DNA of 64,000 nucleotides from an uncultured bacterium (GTDB lineage: Bacteria; Abyssobacteria; SURF-5), in NCBI GenBank assembly GCA_964607485.1, contig CAZSKP010000005.1:64001-128000 (forward strand). Direction: 5' to 3'. The notes under the pieces were generated by a model. It had not been told where the DNA came from. It ran no database searches and was given only the letters and a program-made list of their open reading frames with translations. A program made the translations under genes and the position numbers. Shown piece after piece: positions 17,072-23,277 of the stretch; the stretch's first letter is position 1, and each line of letters begins with the position of its first letter.

Positions 17072-17152
17072 CGAGGCCGAAGCGAGCCCCGATGAGTATG
17101 GGTGGAAGCGGCGTGGACGGACTGCCTAGTTTCTGAGAAGAAGGAAATAGGA

Positions 17153-18196
17153 ATGGACGCGTTGGTGAAGCTGAGCAGCGTGGTGGGGCTTTCTCTCACC
17201 TCGGGGATAAATCTCTACGCGACCGTGGCTGTCGTGGGGCTCGTCACGAAGTTCGACATGATAAAGGGACTGCCTCCCGAATTCCAGGCATTCAACAATA
17301 ACTTCATTATTATCCTCGCCATAGTTCTCTACCTTTGCGAATTTGCAGCCGACAAGATTCCCGCCTTCGACACCGTCTGGGACAGCGTGCACACCATAAT
17401 TCGACCGTTCGGAGCGGCATTGGTCTCGCTGGCAGCCGTCGGCGAGGCAGGCCCGTCGGTAGAGGTCGGCGTCGCACTGCTCGGCGCGAGCCTTGCGCTG
17501 GCCACCCACACGGCGAAGGCGGGCACCCGGCTGGTGGTCAATACCAGTCCCGAGCCGTTCTCGAATATCGCCCTCAGCCTCGCGGAGGACGTAGGAGTGG
17601 TGGGGATGTCGCTTCTCGTCATGTCTCACCCAATTATCTCGCTTGTGGTCAGCCTGGTAGTCCTGGTTCTCCTTATAAAGTTCGGACCCGGGCTGTGGAG
17701 AGGAGCCATCCTGATTGTCAGGGCGATTCCGGCAAAACTCTTCTCGGGAGCATCCGGCGGGGGAGAAGCGGGGCTGAAAGAATTTCTGCCTGATAGCATC
17801 GAGGAGGCGATCGACGCTGAGACGTCAAAGAACGAAGAAGTTCAGGCTTCCATGAAATGCTTCGCGCGTAAGGTGAAGGGATGCGGAAGAAATAAGAAGG
17901 GATACCTCGTCCTGACCGATAACCGGCTGCTCTTTGCGTTTCGAAAATTTTTCAGAACGAGAGTGAAGCAGTGGAAGCTCGCGGACGTGGACAAGGTAAG
18001 GCTGAACAGGAGATTCCTGTTGGATGTGCTCGGAGTCAAGAGCGAGGGAAGATTCCTGCAGTTCATCTTCCTGAAGAACAAGTCCGCTTCCGCCGGCCGA
18101 CTGTGCGAAGTGCTGGATGAAAAGCTCGGCCGCCCGGATTCAAGAGAAGTCGCGCCGGGAGAGGCGGCGAGCGGCGCTGATATCGCCGGCGAATAG
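17153..18196 (+). CDS. DUF4126-like membrane protein with C-terminal bacterial PH-like domain
   Basis: SGINLYAT, EFAADKIPAFDTVWDSVHTIIRP, NTSPEPFSNIALSLAED; C-terminal GYLVLTDNRLLF. Confidence 0.8.
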   Translation: MDALVKLSSVVGLSLTSGINLYATVAVVGLVTKFDMIKGLPPEFQAFNNNFIIILAIVLYLCEFAADKIPAFDTVWDSVHTIIRPFGAALVSLAAVGEAGPSVEVGVALLGASLALATHTAKAGTRLVVNTSPEPFSNIALSLAEDVGVVGMSLLVMSHPIISLVVSLVVLVLLIKFGPGLWRGAILIVRAIPAKLFSGASGGGEAGLKEFLPDSIEEAIDAETSKNEEVQASMKCFARKVKGCGRNKKGYLVLTDNRLLFAFRKFFRTRVKQWKLADVDKVRLNRRFLLDVLGVKSEGRFLQFIFLKNKSASAGRLCEVLDEKLGRPDSREVAPGEAASGADIAGE

Positions 18197-18204
18197 TCCC
18201 CCCA

Positions 18205-18972
18205 TCAGTACAGAAGCCTGCTCCATTGCAGTAGTCCCATGAACACGAGCGCCGCCGACATTGCGACGCCGAAGAGCACGTCAACCCCGCCAATTGAAAA
18301 ATCGTCCATTGCGTAGAACTTTCCCTTGAAACCTCGACATAACATGGCGGCATAGACTGCCTGCGCGCTTTCGTAACTGCTCACCAAAAGCATCCCCACC
18401 ATGTTCGCGTACGACCGATACGTATGCAGGTTGGCGCCGGGCCGGAAGCAGCGCACCTTCATCGAGGCCCTGAGCCGCAGATACTCGCGGTTTATCACGC
18501 CGAGATACCGAAGCATGAAGAGGAGCACGTGGATTATCTTTTCGGGAACGTGCAGCCTGCCGAGGGCGCGGCCGATGTCGGTCAGGTGTGTCGTCGAGAG
18601 AAGAGCGATGCACGTGAGGACGATGGCGTTCGATTTAACGGTGATGAGGAGCGCGTAGGCAGCCCCTTCGCGCGAGAACGCCAGCGGGCCGACGTGGAAC
18701 ACGACCTCGCCGGGATAGGTGAACGGCAGCATGAGCCACAACAGAAGCATGAACCCGTTGACGAGCAGCATTCGATACGCGATCGCCCGGGCGGGCAGCC
18801 TCGCCACCGAGGCGAGCACAACCGCCAGCCCCAGTGCCAGCATCAGCGCGGGAAAGCGGTCTGCCACGGCCGTCAAGATTGAAAAAGCTACGGCGGCGAC
18901 GATTTTCACCCGCGGGTCGAGCCGGTGAACGAAAGAATCACCGTCGGCAAACGTTTCTTCCAGCATGCTCAT
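18205..18972 (-). CDS. cbiQ: Co/Ni ECF transporter T component
   Basis: HRLDPRVKI...RYLGVINREY...MKVRCF...AMLCRGF. Confidence 0.92.
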   Translation of the reverse strand: MSMLEETFADGDSFVHRLDPRVKIVAAVAFSILTAVADRFPALMLALGLAVVLASVARLPARAIAYRMLLVNGFMLLLWLMLPFTYPGEVVFHVGPLAFSREGAAYALLITVKSNAIVLTCIALLSTTHLTDIGRALGRLHVPEKIIHVLLFMLRYLGVINREYLRLRASMKVRCFRPGANLHTYRSYANMVGMLLVSSYESAQAVYAAMLCRGFKGKFYAMDDFSIGGVDVLFGVAMSAALVFMGLLQWSRLLY

Positions 18973-19631
18973 TATTGCCGCCTCTGGAGTCGTCTGCTGC
19001 GAAAATACAGCGCCAATCCCATCAAACCGATAATATAACCGATCCCGCCGACGATGTCGGAAAACCTCTCCCTGTCCTTGGATTCCTCGATGGCTCTGCG
19101 AATGGGCGCCAACTGTCGGGCGAGCGCTTCATCGATGGCCCGTTCAATGTCAGTCATGGCGGGTGTGGGCTCTATCGGTGCATCCTCAGGTTTTGCTGTG
19201 GGCTCTTTCGGAACCCCCGCGGGTGGAGCTTCAGGAGCCGTTCCCGTGGGTATATCCTCAGGCAGGCCGCCGGGAAGTTCGCTCGCCTGAATCGTGTATT
19301 CAGCCCTGTGGCCCATCGACGCAGTGAGGCGTATCAGCAGGTTCGCCCTGACCGGAGGATGGAACGAAAACGTGCCTTCGGCGTCGGTCTTGCCTTCGAG
19401 GAGTTTCTTCCCCTTGTCATCGAACACCTCGATGGTCGAGTCGCGGCATTTGCGCCCGTCGTTGAAGTAGCTTTCGGTAACCACGTTATCACCTTCCACG
19501 TAGGCGAACACGTTTACCTTGTGAGCCCACGCGGTCGATGGCGCGAGAAGCCCGGTGAGTAAACAGATGACCATGAGGGAGAATATTCTCGAACACCGAC
19601 TTCTACGTCTTGCTGAACTGAGAGTGGGCAT
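18972..19631 (-). CDS. Co/Ni transporter accessory component (CbiL/NikL-like; signal peptide and C-terminal TM)
   Basis: AWAHKVNVFAYVEG...GKTDAEGTFSF...GHRAE...DIVGGIGYIIGLMG; located between cbiM and cbiQ. Confidence 0.75.
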   Translation of the reverse strand: MPTLSSARRRSRCSRIFSLMVICLLTGLLAPSTAWAHKVNVFAYVEGDNVVTESYFNDGRKCRDSTIEVFDDKGKKLLEGKTDAEGTFSFHPPVRANLLIRLTASMGHRAEYTIQASELPGGLPEDIPTGTAPEAPPAGVPKEPTAKPEDAPIEPTPAMTDIERAIDEALARQLAPIRRAIEESKDRERFSDIVGGIGYIIGLMGLALYFRSRRLQRRQ

Positions 19632-20235
19632 AGGGCGCCTCCAGGATTTCCGGCTTGACCTTTTTCAGGAAGCCAACAACGAAAGTGGTCACCACTCCCT
19701 CGACAACCATTACGGGCAGGTGTGCGACCAACACGACCTTTGCGACTTCCAGGAACGATTCCTCCGACCAGACGAGTGAAAGTGCGACCATCAGGCCGCT
19801 CAACAGGATGGCGATGGCGCCGCACGCGAACGCTGCCGTCGCCGATACAAAAGCGCGCGAGCTGTGAATGAAGCGTCCGAACAGCAGAAAGCATATCACT
19901 GCGGGTAGGGCCATGTTCAGCGTATTTACGCCGAGCGTCGTCAGGCCGCCGAATTGAAACATGATCCCCTGCAGGAATAGAGCCACCAAAATCGCAGGGA
20001 AAGCCTCCCAGCCGAGCAACACTCCTGCGAGCCCGTTGAGCACCAGATGAACGCTCACAAAGGGGCCGACGGGCAAGTGTATGAGCGACGCCACGAAGAA
20101 CGCGCACGAGACGAGCGCCACCTGAGGAACCCGCTCGTAATCCATTTTCTTCAAGGCGTAGGCGACGCCGGCGGCGGTCAAACCACCGCCGGCAACCAGG
20201 ACTGCGGGCGATAAAACGCCTTCGGAAATGTGCAT
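19603..20235 (-). CDS. cbiM: Co/Ni ECF transporter S component
   Basis: N-terminal MHISEGVL metal-binding motif; FFVASLIH, HLVLNGLAG, GGLTTLGVN. Confidence 0.95.
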   Translation of the reverse strand: MHISEGVLSPAVLVAGGGLTAAGVAYALKKMDYERVPQVALVSCAFFVASLIHLPVGPFVSVHLVLNGLAGVLLGWEAFPAILVALFLQGIMFQFGGLTTLGVNTLNMALPAVICFLLFGRFIHSSRAFVSATAAFACGAIAILLSGLMVALSLVWSEESFLEVAKVVLVAHLPVMVVEGVVTTFVVGFLKKVKPEILEAPYAHSQFSKT

Positions 20236-20242
20236 CGCCTTA

Positions 20243-21025
20243 TTACTCCATCTCGCGGGTGTTGACCCATATCAGCGCGCCGATTTCGACGGGCACCTCG
20301 TCGCCGTCGGGATTCTTGAGCTTTTCGTCGGCCTCGCTCAGCGCGGCGAACCCCCACCAGCCCGCCTTCGGCATCGCGTAACTGAACACGCCGTTGGCAT
20401 CGGCCTTGACCACCTGGGTGATGAACGGGTCGGCGGGCGGCTTGACCTTTCCGTCCTCATTGAAGTATTCCACCTCGACCTCGGCGTAGGGAACCGGCTT
20501 GCCGTCCTTCTTCACGATTCCGCGGAACACGTTGCCGGCCCACAGCCCGTACGGGCGCGTGAGCGGCACGATCTCCGTCTTCAGCCCGAGTTCCTCATCC
20601 CAGCCCTGCTCGAGGCCCATCGCGTTCACCACGACCTTCGTGTAATGAACAATCATGAGGCCTTCGGCTGGCTCCCAGTAGGGGGCGGGCTCGACATAGA
20701 ACACGTGGTCGCCCGGCCGCTTGATTTCATACGTTGTCTTGAAGGCGGAGTGGCCCTTGTAGGTCATCGGCTCGAGGGCACCGAGCAGGTCGTGCTTCTT
20801 GCCTCCAATGAACACCCCGAACTCGGTCGGCTTCGCCATATCCATGGAATGGCCTTCCATAGGGTGTATGAACATCAGCCGCAGGGACAGCTCTCTGCTG
20901 TCCCTCGGCGAGACGATGTCCGTTGAGGGCACTATCATCTGGAAGTGTGCAAGGGCCGGCGACGCGGCTGCAAGGGTGAGAATCAAGGCAATGAGTAAAC
21001 GAGACAATGTTCCAGTGGTTTTCAT
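20243..21025 (-). CDS. DUF4198 periplasmic Ni/Co-uptake protein
   Basis: Signal peptide then [45 protein letters not shown]. Confidence 0.85.
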
Positions 21026-21056
21026 AACGGCATTCTCCTTGTCGTTGTAAATTCTA

Positions 21057-22364
21057 TCAAAAATCAACCTGCGCGCGTGTGCCGAGAACGGTCACGGTGT
21101 CGTTGTCGGCATCGCCCCCCGGATTGTCGATGACCTGAATATCGGGAGAGAGGCGGAACTGGTCGCTGAACATGATGCTGTAGTATGCTTCAAAAAGCGT
21201 CTCGGTGTCATCGGGCTCGACTCTGTCGCTTATGAGCGCCTGCGAGACCGCGAAGCCAAGCACGTCGTTCTCGCGGTTCCACTTCCTCCCGCGTATCTCA
21301 GCGCCCGCGCTCCATGTTCCCTCGACCTCGTACACGTCCTTATCCGCATATCCCGCCCGGAGGAACGCGGTGAGGCAATCGGTGAGCTGCTGGTCAAAGC
21401 TCAGGCCGACACCCCAGCCGTTCTTGTGAGAGTCGCCGTCGCCCAGCTTCTCCTTGTCGGAACCGTTGACCCAGGCGTAGAACCGGTAGTTGCCTTCCCT
21501 TTCGCTCAAATTCGGCTTGAAATCCACCTCCATGATGCCGAAGCCGTCATTCGCAATGTCTTCCCAGTCGGCATCGCTTTCGGCCCAGCCGAGACTGAAC
21601 TGAATCAGGTCGGATGGATAAACGGCAAGCAGTGCGCCTGCCCCGTTTTCCTCGGGAAACTCGACTGCGATAGAGTTGACGAGCCCGGAGTTGAGGAACT
21701 GAAATCTCTCGTCGTTGGCCACTGTGTTCGTGTCGAAATAGTTGGTCATGTCGAGTTTGCCGGCGGCGAGCGCGACGCGGTCATCACAGAAGGAATGCTG
21801 ATACCATGCCTCTGTCACTTCCAGGCCACTCTCGCTGTCGCCGGCGTCGTCGTTCACGTTGTGAAAGAGACCCTCAAGCTCATCGGTCAGTCCGTCGCCC
21901 TGAGCGGCCTCGATGAGCATAAAGGCCAAGCCGCGCTCTCCGACGGGCGACTCGAGCTCAAGGTCCATCGACCACGAGCCATCCGTCCGGTCCCGATTCT
22001 CACCGCTGATGTCCTCGCCGTCGATGCTGCCCTGTACGACGCCGGTGAGGCCGACGGCGATCCGCAGGTTCCCCAATTGCTCGCCCACCCCGCTGCGGTC
22101 GTGCAGGATATGTTTATCAAGGTGCGGCTCAAACATCCGTGCCATTTCTTCGGGCGAGGGAAGCTGCGCCTGCAAATCTCTTATGAGCTGTTCCTGATGC
22201 CTGATTGTTTGACCTTGTTGCTGAACCACCTCCTGAAGTTGGGTGACCATCTGTTTGAGTTCTTCGAGTTGCTGTTCCACCGTGTCCGCATGGCTTCTGG
22301 ATGCCGGAAGCATCGCCGCCATCGCGACGGCAGCCAGCGCGAGCCCGCGCGTGAGTCCTTTCAT
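21057..22364 (-). CDS. Outer-membrane porin (OprB/carbohydrate-porin-like) with N-terminal coiled coil
   Basis: Signal peptide, coiled coil, [42 protein letters not shown]-terminal Phe (RAQVDF). Confidence 0.8.
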
Positions 22365-22490
22365 GTTTGCCGTCCTTTCCCTTTCGGACTCCGGGGGCAA
22401 TCTCCGATATTGCGCCGAGTAACGCCCATAAGAGCGCATCCGGAGACTCATCGCCTCTGCGACAAGGTACAATTCTCCTTCCGTTTCCCC

Positions 22491-22594
22491 AAAAAAAATC
22501 ACGAAGGGGCGGCGTCCGCTTCGTGCCGACGCGCCGACCTTCGTGGTCAGCTTTGGGAAATACTACTGTATTCGGCCGGGCCTTCGTGGCCCGG
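22491..22594 (-). promoter_or_regulatory. Putative transcription attenuator: three ACGAA-loop hairpins plus a competing intrinsic terminator
   Basis: Minus strand reads CCGGGCC-ACGAA-GGCCCGG; GACC-ACGAA-GGTC; GCGTCGGC-ACGAA-GCGGACGC; then CTTCGTG-A-T8, which can pair with a CACGAAG to form a terminator. Confidence 0.7.
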
Positions 22595-22608
22595 GTTGTC
22601 GAGCGTTC

Positions 22609-22797
22609 TCAGCTCTTCTCGAGGAGTATCTTGTGGTCAATCAGGCGAATCTCTTTTATGCGCGCGCTGACGGTCTTCTGTTCGCCGAAAGCGCTTCGCA
22701 GATACACTCCGTCGCCTTCAGGACGCAAGATATCCACGCTCTCGAGCAGCATCTGCTCCTTGCCGTTTTCCAGGATGTAGGCGTTTGCTTCACACAT
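22609..22797 (-). CDS. cooT: CooT-family nickel-binding protein
   Basis: MCEANAY...MLLESVD...SAFGEQK...IDHKILLE: Cys2 and C-terminal His pattern, 62 aa. Confidence 0.88.
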   Translation of the reverse strand: MCEANAYILENGKEQMLLESVDILRPEGDGVYLRSAFGEQKTVSARIKEIRLIDHKILLEKS

Positions 22798-23215
22798 TTT
22801 CAGGGTTCCTTGCTATTGCGGCCACTCGCTGGACGAGCTCCTCTATGAGGTGAGGAATCGGCTCGTCCTTCAAGCCGACAACCTCGATGCCGGCCGACTT
22901 GAGCGGCATCACAATCTTATGGGCCCGGCTCTGAACGATTGCTTCAACCATGCCGGGGGTTATCTCGCCGAGCATCGAATGCGGCTGAAGAATCGCAAGC
23001 CCGCCCGTGATGATGTCCAGCCGGGGCGATGTTTGGCTGATGGCGTTCTCGCCCGAGGCGCCCTTGTTCGCGCCCGCCTTCATCATGTTGGCCGTGGCGA
23101 TGGCGTTCGTCCCGAGCGCCACTATCTCCGTCTCCTCGGGCAGGGCCTTGCGCAGCCGCTCGACCACATGCGCTCCGATTCCGCCGCCCTGTCCGTCCAC
23201 CACGCCAACTATCAC
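22790..23215 (-). CDS. DUF3842 family protein
   Basis: VVDGQGGGIG...ALGTNAIATANMMKAGANKGASGENAI...SMLGEITP; overlaps the cooT start by 8 bp. Confidence 0.85.
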   Translation of the reverse strand: MIVGVVDGQGGGIGAHVVERLRKALPEETEIVALGTNAIATANMMKAGANKGASGENAISQTSPRLDIITGGLAILQPHSMLGEITPGMVEAIVQSRAHKIVMPLKSAGIEVVGLKDEPIPHLIEELVQRVAAIARNPENV

Positions 23216-23248
23216 GGTCGCACCCGATTCGAATTGTCTTACGGAACA

Positions 23249-23277
23249 AGGATAACAGAATGGCGCGTGTTAGTCAA
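23249..23277 (-). promoter_or_regulatory. Sigma70-type promoter for DUF3842-cooT(-metal uptake) operon
   Basis: TTGACT-17 bp-TATCCT with a TG extension on the minus strand. Confidence 0.6.

Follow-up and report, generated by a model that had tools for sequence, protein, structure and literature searches.

We analysed a stretch of 64,000 nucleotides (hereafter the window) from an uncultured bacterium of the Abyssobacteria (SURF-5; contig CAZSKP010000005.1 of assembly GCA_964607485.1), in which a gene pair on the minus strand, DUF3842-cooT, is followed by three RNA hairpins and then by genes for a porin and for nickel/cobalt transport (Table 1). An earlier note on this DNA, made from the sequence alone, had proposed a protein-dependent antitermination switch between the two groups of genes. 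We found that the element is a member of a wide family in which a (R)GCC-ACGAA-GGC(Y) hairpin, here called P2, competes with a terminator. It is very probably a regulated attenuator of this P2/terminator family, gating read-through from DUF3842-cooT into a porin-nikK(DUF4198)-nikM-nikL-nikQ nickel/cobalt uptake operon.

Table 1. Genes and RNA features of the DUF3842-cooT locus, in window positions.
Feature	Positions	Strand	Description and basis
Sigma70-like promoter, extended -10	23249-23277	-	TTGACT-17-TG-TATCCT; pattern scan, 9/12 with TG; putative function
DUF3842 gene	22790-23215	-	141 aa, GTG start; PF12953, 171.2 bits
cooT	22609-22797	-	62 aa; PF10133, 90.2 bits (cut-off 27); Cys2, His55; stop codon 22611-22609
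HP1	22594-22576	-	CCGGGCC-ACGAA-GGCCCGG; accessory hairpin; sequence
P2 (hairpin 2, or HP2, of the earlier note)	22550-22534	-	CUGACC-ACGAA-GGUCGG; conserved core hairpin, putative antiterminator
P3 (hairpin 3, or HP3, of the earlier note)	22535-22508	-	GCGUCGGC-ACGAA-GCGGACGC within extended stem; terminator apex; minimum free energy fold
Terminator 3' arm, CCUUCGUG	22507-22500	-	followed by A (22499) and U8 (22498-22491)
Intrinsic terminator	22545-22491	-	lower stem CACGAAGG (22545-22538) pairs with CCUUCGUG (22507-22500), P3 as apex
Conserved leader block	22389-22445	-	between terminator and porin start; CUCCGG...UCGGAG, then a second CGGAG
OprB-type porin	22364-21057	-	Pfam
DUF4198 (nikK)	21067-20243	-	Pfam
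CbiM/NikM	20235-19603	-	Pfam; NCBIfam NF004905, 282.6 bits
NikL-family	19631-18972	-	NCBIfam NF058648, 196.8 bits
CbiQ	18972-18205	-	Pfam; TIGR02454
Proposed controlled operon	18205-22364	-	OprB porin, DUF4198, CbiM/NikM, NikL-family, CbiQ

All three hairpins on the minus strand 3' of cooT carry an ACGAA loop closed by C-G in the sequence of the window, and the positions that the earlier note had assigned to them proved correct, including 22548-22536 for the core of hairpin 2. The CTTCGTG-A-T8 string that it had read after them is likewise there, as CCUUCGUG-A-U8 at 22507-22491. HP1 begins 15 bases past the end of cooT (22609), a spacer of 25 nt separates it from P2, and P3 directly abuts P2. 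The G+C-rich stem at 22545-22500, followed by A and U8, has the make-up of an intrinsic terminator; a simple terminator scan missed it because it accepted only loops of 3-8 nt. Counting both CACGAAG and its complement, the heptamer is found 23 times in the 64 kb, against 11.1 +/- 3.4 in shuffled sequences. The Poisson chance of four copies within 96 nt is ~6e-8, or ~4e-5 after counting all spans, and the 251-nt region folds better than all 200 shuffles (z = -3.8). ACGAA pentaloops show no enrichment in the 4.7-Mb genome as a whole (98 hairpins on stems of at least 5, rank 245 of 1024), and the pentaloop scan found no second cluster of ACGAA hairpins anywhere in it.

The minimum free energy (MFE) fold pairs CCUUCGUG with the CACGAAGG of P2 and keeps P3 as the apex, giving one long terminator hairpin. 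For the 68-nt element this fold comes to -33.7 kcal/mol, compared with -27.2 kcal/mol when P2 is enforced and -25.2 kcal/mol when CUUCGUG is paired with the loop of hairpin 3; P2 on its own contributes -7.2 kcal/mol. The consensus that RNAalifold derives from eight family members, HP1 plus the long terminator, agrees with the MFE fold of the window. In one relative (L013) the P2 loop reads ACGGA and the 3' arm CCUCCGU, an exchange of A-U for G-C; because this compensatory exchange leaves the loop of hairpin 3 as ACGAA, it is with P2 that the 3' arm pairs. Two Thermodesulfovibrio copies (L230, L232) have CCAUGAAGG together with CUUCAUGG or CUUUCAUGG. The mutual exclusion of hairpin 3 and the terminator, as the earlier note had it, is a pairing that can form in the window, but MFE, RNAalifold and the compensatory changes all give the P2 segment as the favoured and conserved partner. 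The conserved switch is P2 against the terminator, with the pairing to the loop of hairpin 3 a possible, weaker second register in the window only.

We searched 41 relatives, comprising the window genome (G000), nine others of its family and 31 more distant ones. DUF3842 is present in eight of them, namely G000 and seven of the nine other family genomes, and in none of the 31 distant ones. The element lies 3' of cooT in all eight DUF3842-bearing family genomes, and the order DUF3842-cooT-element-(porin)-DUF4198-cbiM-nikL-cbiQ is maintained across the family, the next gene after the element being the porin in 5/7 relatives and DUF4198 directly in 2/7. The loop of HP1 reads ACGAA in four members and AUGAA, GCGAA, AUGAC and GUGAA in the others; RNAalifold gives this hairpin seven pairs, two with compensatory changes, in 8/8 relatives, and its outer pairs covary. 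P3 has the loop ACGAA five times, besides AUGAA, AGAA and ACAAA, on a stem with compensatory pairs (RNAalifold), and the linker between HP1 and P2 cannot be aligned across the family. Another member of the family (G001) has neither DUF3842 nor the motif; its absence there may be an assembly gap, since the cbiM of that genome lies on a contig of 2.7 kb.

A promoter-like site, CTTGAC(T/G)-N17-TGnTAnnnT, is kept upstream of DUF3842 in 8/8 family genomes, its flanks having diverged, which bears out the sigma70 promoter proposed there as the one that would read DUF3842-cooT into the element; no conserved promoter was seen between cooT and HP1 in the family alignment. The DUF3842 gene is 240 nt upstream of the element, and in the window its stop overlaps the cooT start (ATGTGTGA, 22790-22797), an arrangement that suggests translational coupling of the two genes across a variable junction. 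In L010, L013 and L016 DUF3842 stops three to four codons sooner, at an in-frame TAG or TGA.

Outside this family, we scanned both strands of the best 80 loci encoding DUF3842 (893 kb), which belong to Nitrospirota, Thermodesulfobacteriota, Actinomycetota, Bacillota and Heliobacterium. Within these best 80 loci cooT follows DUF3842 in 73, and there are 19 C-ACGAA-G hairpins with a stem of at least 4, all on the gene strand and 18 of them just 3' of DUF3842/cooT. Three Bacillota metagenome-assembled genomes (MAGs) without cooT have a promoter, a GCrUAUC-AUGAA-GAUAUGC hairpin and then AUGCC-ACGAA-GGCAU, followed by an apical hairpin, GUCUUUGUGG, U8 and the start of cbiM.

A scan of metagenomes by RNA pattern only gave at least 120 matches, of which 80 loci were taken and 50 downstream open reading frames (ORFs) put to Pfam. 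Among the matches listed, 18 of the 50 ORFs encode CbiM (4), DUF4198 (2), OprB (2), Phenol_MetA_deg outer-membrane channels (4), TonB-dependent receptors (3), a BBP2 porin (1) or DUF3842 (2); another seven encode other transport or metal proteins, and the remainder are unrelated or without assignment. Custom hidden Markov models found DUF3842, cooT or cbiM in 17 of the 80 loci among these matches. Part of the pattern matches are chance terminators, for example after leaders of the thiamine pyrophosphate (TPP) type before ThiG, or before TetR. Some 16 of the 80 loci hold something else, namely long hairpins of repeated CACGAAG...CTTCGTG units (L102, L113, L121, L123, L124, L135, L142, L143, L145, L157, L163, L164, L166, L172, L176). 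These have two to four direct CACGAAG units, an equal number of CTTCGTG units and a T-tract, stand mostly at the 3' ends of unrelated genes and show no link to nickel genes.

The alignment built from these searches (A2, 63 sequences) leaves out 23 repeat-hairpin or plain-terminator loci, as well as duplicates and loci too near ends. The flanks of P2 beyond the fixed CC/GG pair over 2.63 bp on average, and over 1.58 +/- 0.13 bp when permuted among the sequences (n = 63; 0/10000). In the same alignment 80.4% of P2 cells are paired (n = 63), compared with 69.8% shuffled and 17-48% when slid, and the covariation score of P2 is 0.383 against 0.200 shuffled, with 53 cells changed on both sides. For the terminator 96% of cells are paired (n = 63), its core being partly set by the search pattern, and the free pair 8-60 covaries (GC 29, AU 20, GU 13). 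The stem covariation and conservation looked for in homologous loci are thus found in the P2 flanks and in compensatory terminator pairs, in several phyla. That the element is a conserved attenuator-like structure, and not a chance cluster of hairpins, is supported. Conserved information is limited in A2 to ~13 nt of one hairpin, a length common among protein sites and short for an aptamer. The only universal parts are P2 and its complement (consensus nAnnnAnGCCACGAAGGTnT...CTTCGTGGT8); of the three ACGAA hairpins once taken as a unit, hairpin 2 therefore holds throughout, while loops of the HP1 and HP3 types depend on lineage.

The typical order is promoter, an optional hairpin P1, an unconserved linker of ~40 nt, P2, a variable P3, the 3' arm and the U-tract, with the start codon 0-40 nt past the U-tract in most members. 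The loops of P1 consist of 1-2 nt plus GAA (AGAA, UGAA, AAGAA, AUGAA, ACGAA, AGGAA); inspection of sequence and fold finds a P1 of this type in most Clostridia leaders and not in most Nitrospirota ones, in some of which the promoter leaves P1 no room. In Clostridia and Nitrospirota the element lies between a TTGACA/TATAAT-like promoter and a gene start, as a leader and not at a gene end. The family ranges over the family of the window, Clostridia, Nitrospirota, Heliobacterium and Actinomycetota. In Thermoleophilia, 6/7 cooT-cbiM spacers have a GGGCC-ACGAA-GGCCC hairpin, but with no canonical terminator and no match to the covariance model described below we do not count these as members.

A covariance model (R1) was built from 63 sequences and run on three genome samples. 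It describes a (R)GCC-ACGAA-GGC(Y) hairpin whose 5' half doubles as the 5' arm of a terminator, the 3' arm of that terminator being CCUUYGUGG with a U-tract behind it. It gives the window element 56 bits (E = 2.6e-9), the element itself being among the 63 training sequences. Within the 41 relatives R1 matches exactly the eight DUF3842-positive genomes, once in G000 and twice in G006, where the second copy precedes a TonB-receptor gene. The Clostridia sample has R1 in 13/151 genomes, DUF3842 in 53/150 and CooT in 14/151; twelve of the 13 R1-positive genomes carry DUF3842, the exception (G126) being the weakest match and resembling a plain terminator. One Clostridia genome has the element directly before DUF3842-cooT. 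For Nitrospirota the figures are 39/151 for R1 (E <= 0.01) and 40/151 for DUF3842, with DUF3842 present in 26/39 R1-positive genomes at E <= 0.01 and in 19/21 at E <= 1e-5, and many of the R1 sites lie on a different contig from DUF3842 or a long way from it. The genes behind R1 matches include those for CbiM, S-components of energy-coupling factor (ECF) transporters, FmdE-zinc-finger proteins, OprB, TonB, TonB-receptors, HMA/YHS proteins and outer-membrane channels. The position claimed for the element, ahead of nickel/cobalt uptake genes, thus recurs in other phyla, where its relatives are leaders before CbiM, ECF_trnsprt, OprB, TonB and HMA genes. Fusions of an FmdE domain with a DksA/TraR-type zinc finger recur right behind the attenuator in Clostridia-type loci (L242:755-1276, L247:1574-2095, L140:1302-1835), and in two Nitrospirota genomes attenuators stand in divergent pairs ~200 nt apart (G212:C17:11275-11536 and G253:C95:7881-8199; L263, L252). 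The expectation that the motif would go together with both DUF3842 and cooT is borne out for DUF3842 (8/8, 12/13 and 19/21 among strong matches) and not for CooT, which is not generally needed, since only two of the 13 motif-bearing Clostridia genomes have it.

The AlphaFold2 model of DUF3842 is Rossmann-like, with a predicted local distance difference test score of 91.6; Foldseek lists FtsZ, USP and UbiX among its matches. Comparison of DUF3842 with sequences of the PDB gave only a chance match (E-value 0.58), and with the ESM Atlas no usable match. The CooT of the window matches the solved CooT 6FAN (E = 1.1e-14), with C2 and H55 aligned, and M-C-E is invariant in 25 CooT homologues. CooT is described as a 7.1-kDa nickel-chaperone dimer binding one Ni per dimer via Cys2, with a dissociation constant (Kd) of 9 nM (PMC6006190). 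Its earlier annotation as a predicted RNA-binding protein was not confirmed, and a search of that review of carbon monoxide dehydrogenase (CODH) maturation (PMC6006190) found no occurrence of the word 'RNA'.

Several results weigh against DUF3842, with or without CooT, as the protein that reads the element. The best fold matches of the DUF3842 model are NAD-binding domains (Z up to 9.0), that is, generic Rossmann folds, and the median isoelectric points are 5.9 for DUF3842 and 5.0 for CooT. The invariant residues of DUF3842 (Gly-rich loops, D7, E30, E84, K46, N37, T41) are mostly glycine and acidic, and its homologues have no invariant Cys or His for nickel sensing; judged by models and composition, neither protein looks like a typical RNA binder. 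CooT is absent from 11/13 R1-positive Clostridia genomes. Two Nitrospirota genomes (G212, G253) have strong R1 matches and no DUF3842 detected even by profile at E <= 1. Conversely, 41 of the 53 DUF3842-positive Clostridia genomes lack an R1 match, and a looser pattern run on five of these found none in three, which reflects either a further role of DUF3842 or an insensitive model. Finally, the non-independence of related genomes and the frequent adjacency of the motif to DUF3842 both inflate the co-occurrence, and the invariance of the A2 core is there by construction because the search pattern fixed that core.

As to known RNA classes, the lack of resemblance to cobalamin or NiCo riboswitches that had been judged by eye agrees with an Rfam scan, which matched no known family: Rfam 15 gave for the window at E <= 10 nothing but a chance small nucleolar RNA match on the other strand, and for nine loci from other phyla at E <= 1 nothing relevant. 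One Bacillota MAG has a sub-threshold match to the Na+ riboswitch RF03071 (L070:2786-2841, minus strand; 30.5 bits, gathering threshold 40.5; E = 0.0096), upstream of a 378-aa ORF adjoining the DUF3842 gene. The P2/terminator RNA is undescribed in the literature searched, which took in few subscription journals and no supplements.

A parallel in layout is the hut operon of Bacillus subtilis, where the regulator gene hutP comes first, the target terminator next and the structural genes last. As in the window, an intrinsic terminator separates the first gene from the structural genes, and read-through needs the RNA-binding product of the upstream gene together with a small ligand or divalent metal, much as we propose here. 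However, the sites of HutP are repeated NAG triplets at ~4-nt spacing that overlap the terminator and are read as single-stranded RNA, whereas the site here is one ACGAA-loop hairpin; there is no array of NAG triplets in 22491-22611, and HutP is unrelated to DUF3842 and CooT, whose binding of RNA is hypothetical. The targets of ANTAR proteins (EutV, NasR, AmiR) are two tandem hairpins with hexaloops bearing A1 and G4. Like the element, ANTAR leaders have small hairpins whose terminal loops are conserved, and the last hairpin overlaps the 5' arm of the terminator; unlike the element, they have two hexaloops, while here the loops are ACGAA pentaloops in the window and (N)NGAA loops of 4-5 nt in relatives, and only one hairpin is universal. 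A search of G000 for the ANTAR domain (PF03861) gave no match, as did the same search of the control genomes.

In the LicT/SacY system, with its ribonucleic antiterminator (RAT), and in that of PyrR, one protein-bound hairpin competes with a terminator in a 5' leader, as would be the case here; sequence, regulon and protein families are all different, and PyrR promotes termination. The NiCo riboswitch (czcD motif) controls efflux and has a four-way junction. It and the cobalamin riboswitch, the latter before cbiMNQO, likewise act at the RNA level on nickel/cobalt transport genes; the window element differs from the NiCo class in standing before uptake genes, in being a simple hairpin switch and in having no Rfam match. 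NikR does the same physiological job, stopping nickel uptake when nickel suffices, but as a DNA-binding repressor, whereas control here would act at transcription elongation. In the NasS-NasT system a sensor protein holds or releases an RNA binder (PMC3795266), as CooT might do for DUF3842.

Three other explanations can be set against a switch read by DUF3842. The attenuator may be real and be read by another factor, with DUF3842 and CooT as nickel-handling members of the same regulon (chaperone or cofactor supply), which would be why they share the distribution and neighbourhood of the motif. In L133, L174 and L237 the motif precedes DUF3842 itself, which is there a regulated member, and this explanation also gains from the fold and charge of DUF3842, unlike those of known RNA binders, from the Clostridia genomes with DUF3842 and no motif (41/53) and the two with the reverse (G212, G253), and from the nickel-chaperone character of CooT (Kd 9 nM; PMC6006190). 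However, co-occurrence at 12/13 and 19/21 is tighter than is usual for a single regulon member, CbiM, ECF S-components, porins and TonB receptors each being found in only some of the genomes; no alternative candidate factor emerged, and regulators commonly control themselves through their own sites. We regard this explanation as rather unlikely.

A small riboswitch, in which Ni2+, Co2+ or a nickel-related metabolite shifts the balance of P2 and terminator with no protein, would account for the control of metal uptake genes across phyla and for the terminator/antiterminator design, which is that of an expression platform, and RNAs that sense metals do exist, such as the NiCo class. We nevertheless think it improbable: the conserved positions make up only one hairpin of 15-19 nt and its complement, with neither a junction nor an internal loop conserved, the linkers vary in length and HP1 is optional. 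Moreover, no Rfam riboswitch matches, and tight co-occurrence with one protein is unexpected for a self-sufficient RNA. An ordinary intrinsic terminator of DUF3842-cooT with a stabilising hairpin, a non-regulatory loop motif and an uptake operon under its own promoter and regulator is very improbable. The long hairpin with U8 is indeed a strong canonical terminator (-33.7 kcal/mol), the leaders of 125-340 nt beyond it could hold a promoter (there is a TTGACA in L010), and many of the metagenome matches, among those listed, are chance terminators before ThiG, TetR and others. Yet termination does not call for a 9-bp stem whose sequence is kept across phyla, and a plain terminator does not explain the covariation of the P2 flanks. 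In other phyla the element is placed after a promoter and ahead of the start codon of a nickel/cobalt uptake gene, often by 0-40 nt, and nearby genes are strongly biased to nickel/cobalt uptake.

The proposal of protein-dependent antitermination was therefore right in kind, the element being an attenuator and probably protein-dependent, but it named the wrong competing hairpin and overstated the role of CooT. That a protein rather than a small ligand reads the element is fairly likely; the fuller statement, a regulated attenuator read by a protein acting in trans, we favour by a little. DUF3842 is the leading candidate for that protein, unproven and with somewhat less than an even chance in our view. 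More tentative still is the idea that DUF3842 founds a family of Rossmann-like RNA-binding antiterminators that read GCC-ACGAA-GGC and, with CooT where present, form a protein-RNA nickel regulon replacing NikR in anaerobes of at least four phyla.

In the mechanism we propose, the terminator would form by default and DUF3842-cooT transcripts would end at 22491, the uptake genes being off because the RNA alone favours the terminator. A factor acting in trans would recognise the (R)GCC-ACGAA-GGC(Y) hairpin, with the look-alike loops of HP1 and P3 probably serving as helper sites in the family of the window. By clamping P2 it would leave CCUUCGUG unpaired, with 9 nt between the P3 stem and the U-tract, so that transcription would run on into the uptake operon when nickel is scarce. 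CooT may here be the nickel-sensing partner of DUF3842. The structures with their conservation and covariation, the association with nickel/cobalt uptake genes and the joint occurrence with DUF3842 are observed; we infer the nickel signal, the direction of control, the binding of the factor and its identity.

Past the terminator, the conserved leader block (~57 nt) reads CUCCGGAU...AAUAUCGGAG and then UUGYCCCCGGAG. It is kept in the window, L013 and L016 (3/6 porin-bearing relatives), while L009 retains only GUCCCCGGAG; its inner helix goes from GCGC/GCGC to UUGC/GCAC in L016. The block may act as an operator or as another RNA switch. The porin leader of L016 also has, past its attenuator (L016:1239-1276), four tandem CACGAAU/AACGAAU repeats at 9-10-nt spacing, which might give the attenuator's factor further single-stranded sites.

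The gene calls made earlier for DUF3842, cooT, the porin, DUF4198, cbiM and cbiQ are confirmed by Pfam and NCBIfam, the 'cbiL-like' gene being one of the NikL family. CbiM, NikL, CbiQ and DUF4198 are the components found of a NikKMLQ(O)-type ECF system. No ECF ATPase gene is present in the uptake operon, the remaining genome not having been searched for one; none follows cbiQ because the next gene (17102-18196), which encodes a protein with DUF4126 and a bacterial pleckstrin homology (PH) domain, is on the other strand. For DUF3842, CooT and DUF4198 there is no NCBIfam model. NikR_C was not found in the window's genome, which is 97.5% complete.

In most anaerobes outside the NikR paradigm the control of nickel uptake is poorly known, and the element offers an RNA-level switch for it with a short, mutable recognition hairpin. 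Its regulon can be read from sequence and takes in NikM/CbiM, NikK/L, porins, TonB systems, ECF S-components, HMA proteins and FmdE. Bench tests are within reach because cultured carriers exist: Heliobacterium chlorum DSM 3682, which has the element before cbiM (L231), and Thermodesulfovibrio sp. N1, which has four copies (L228-L233). The proposal gives a concrete, testable function to the widespread DUF3842 and to orphan CooT genes far from any CODH. If it is true, a regulator pair would be transcribed first and would decide whether its own transcript is extended into the genes of the nickel importer.

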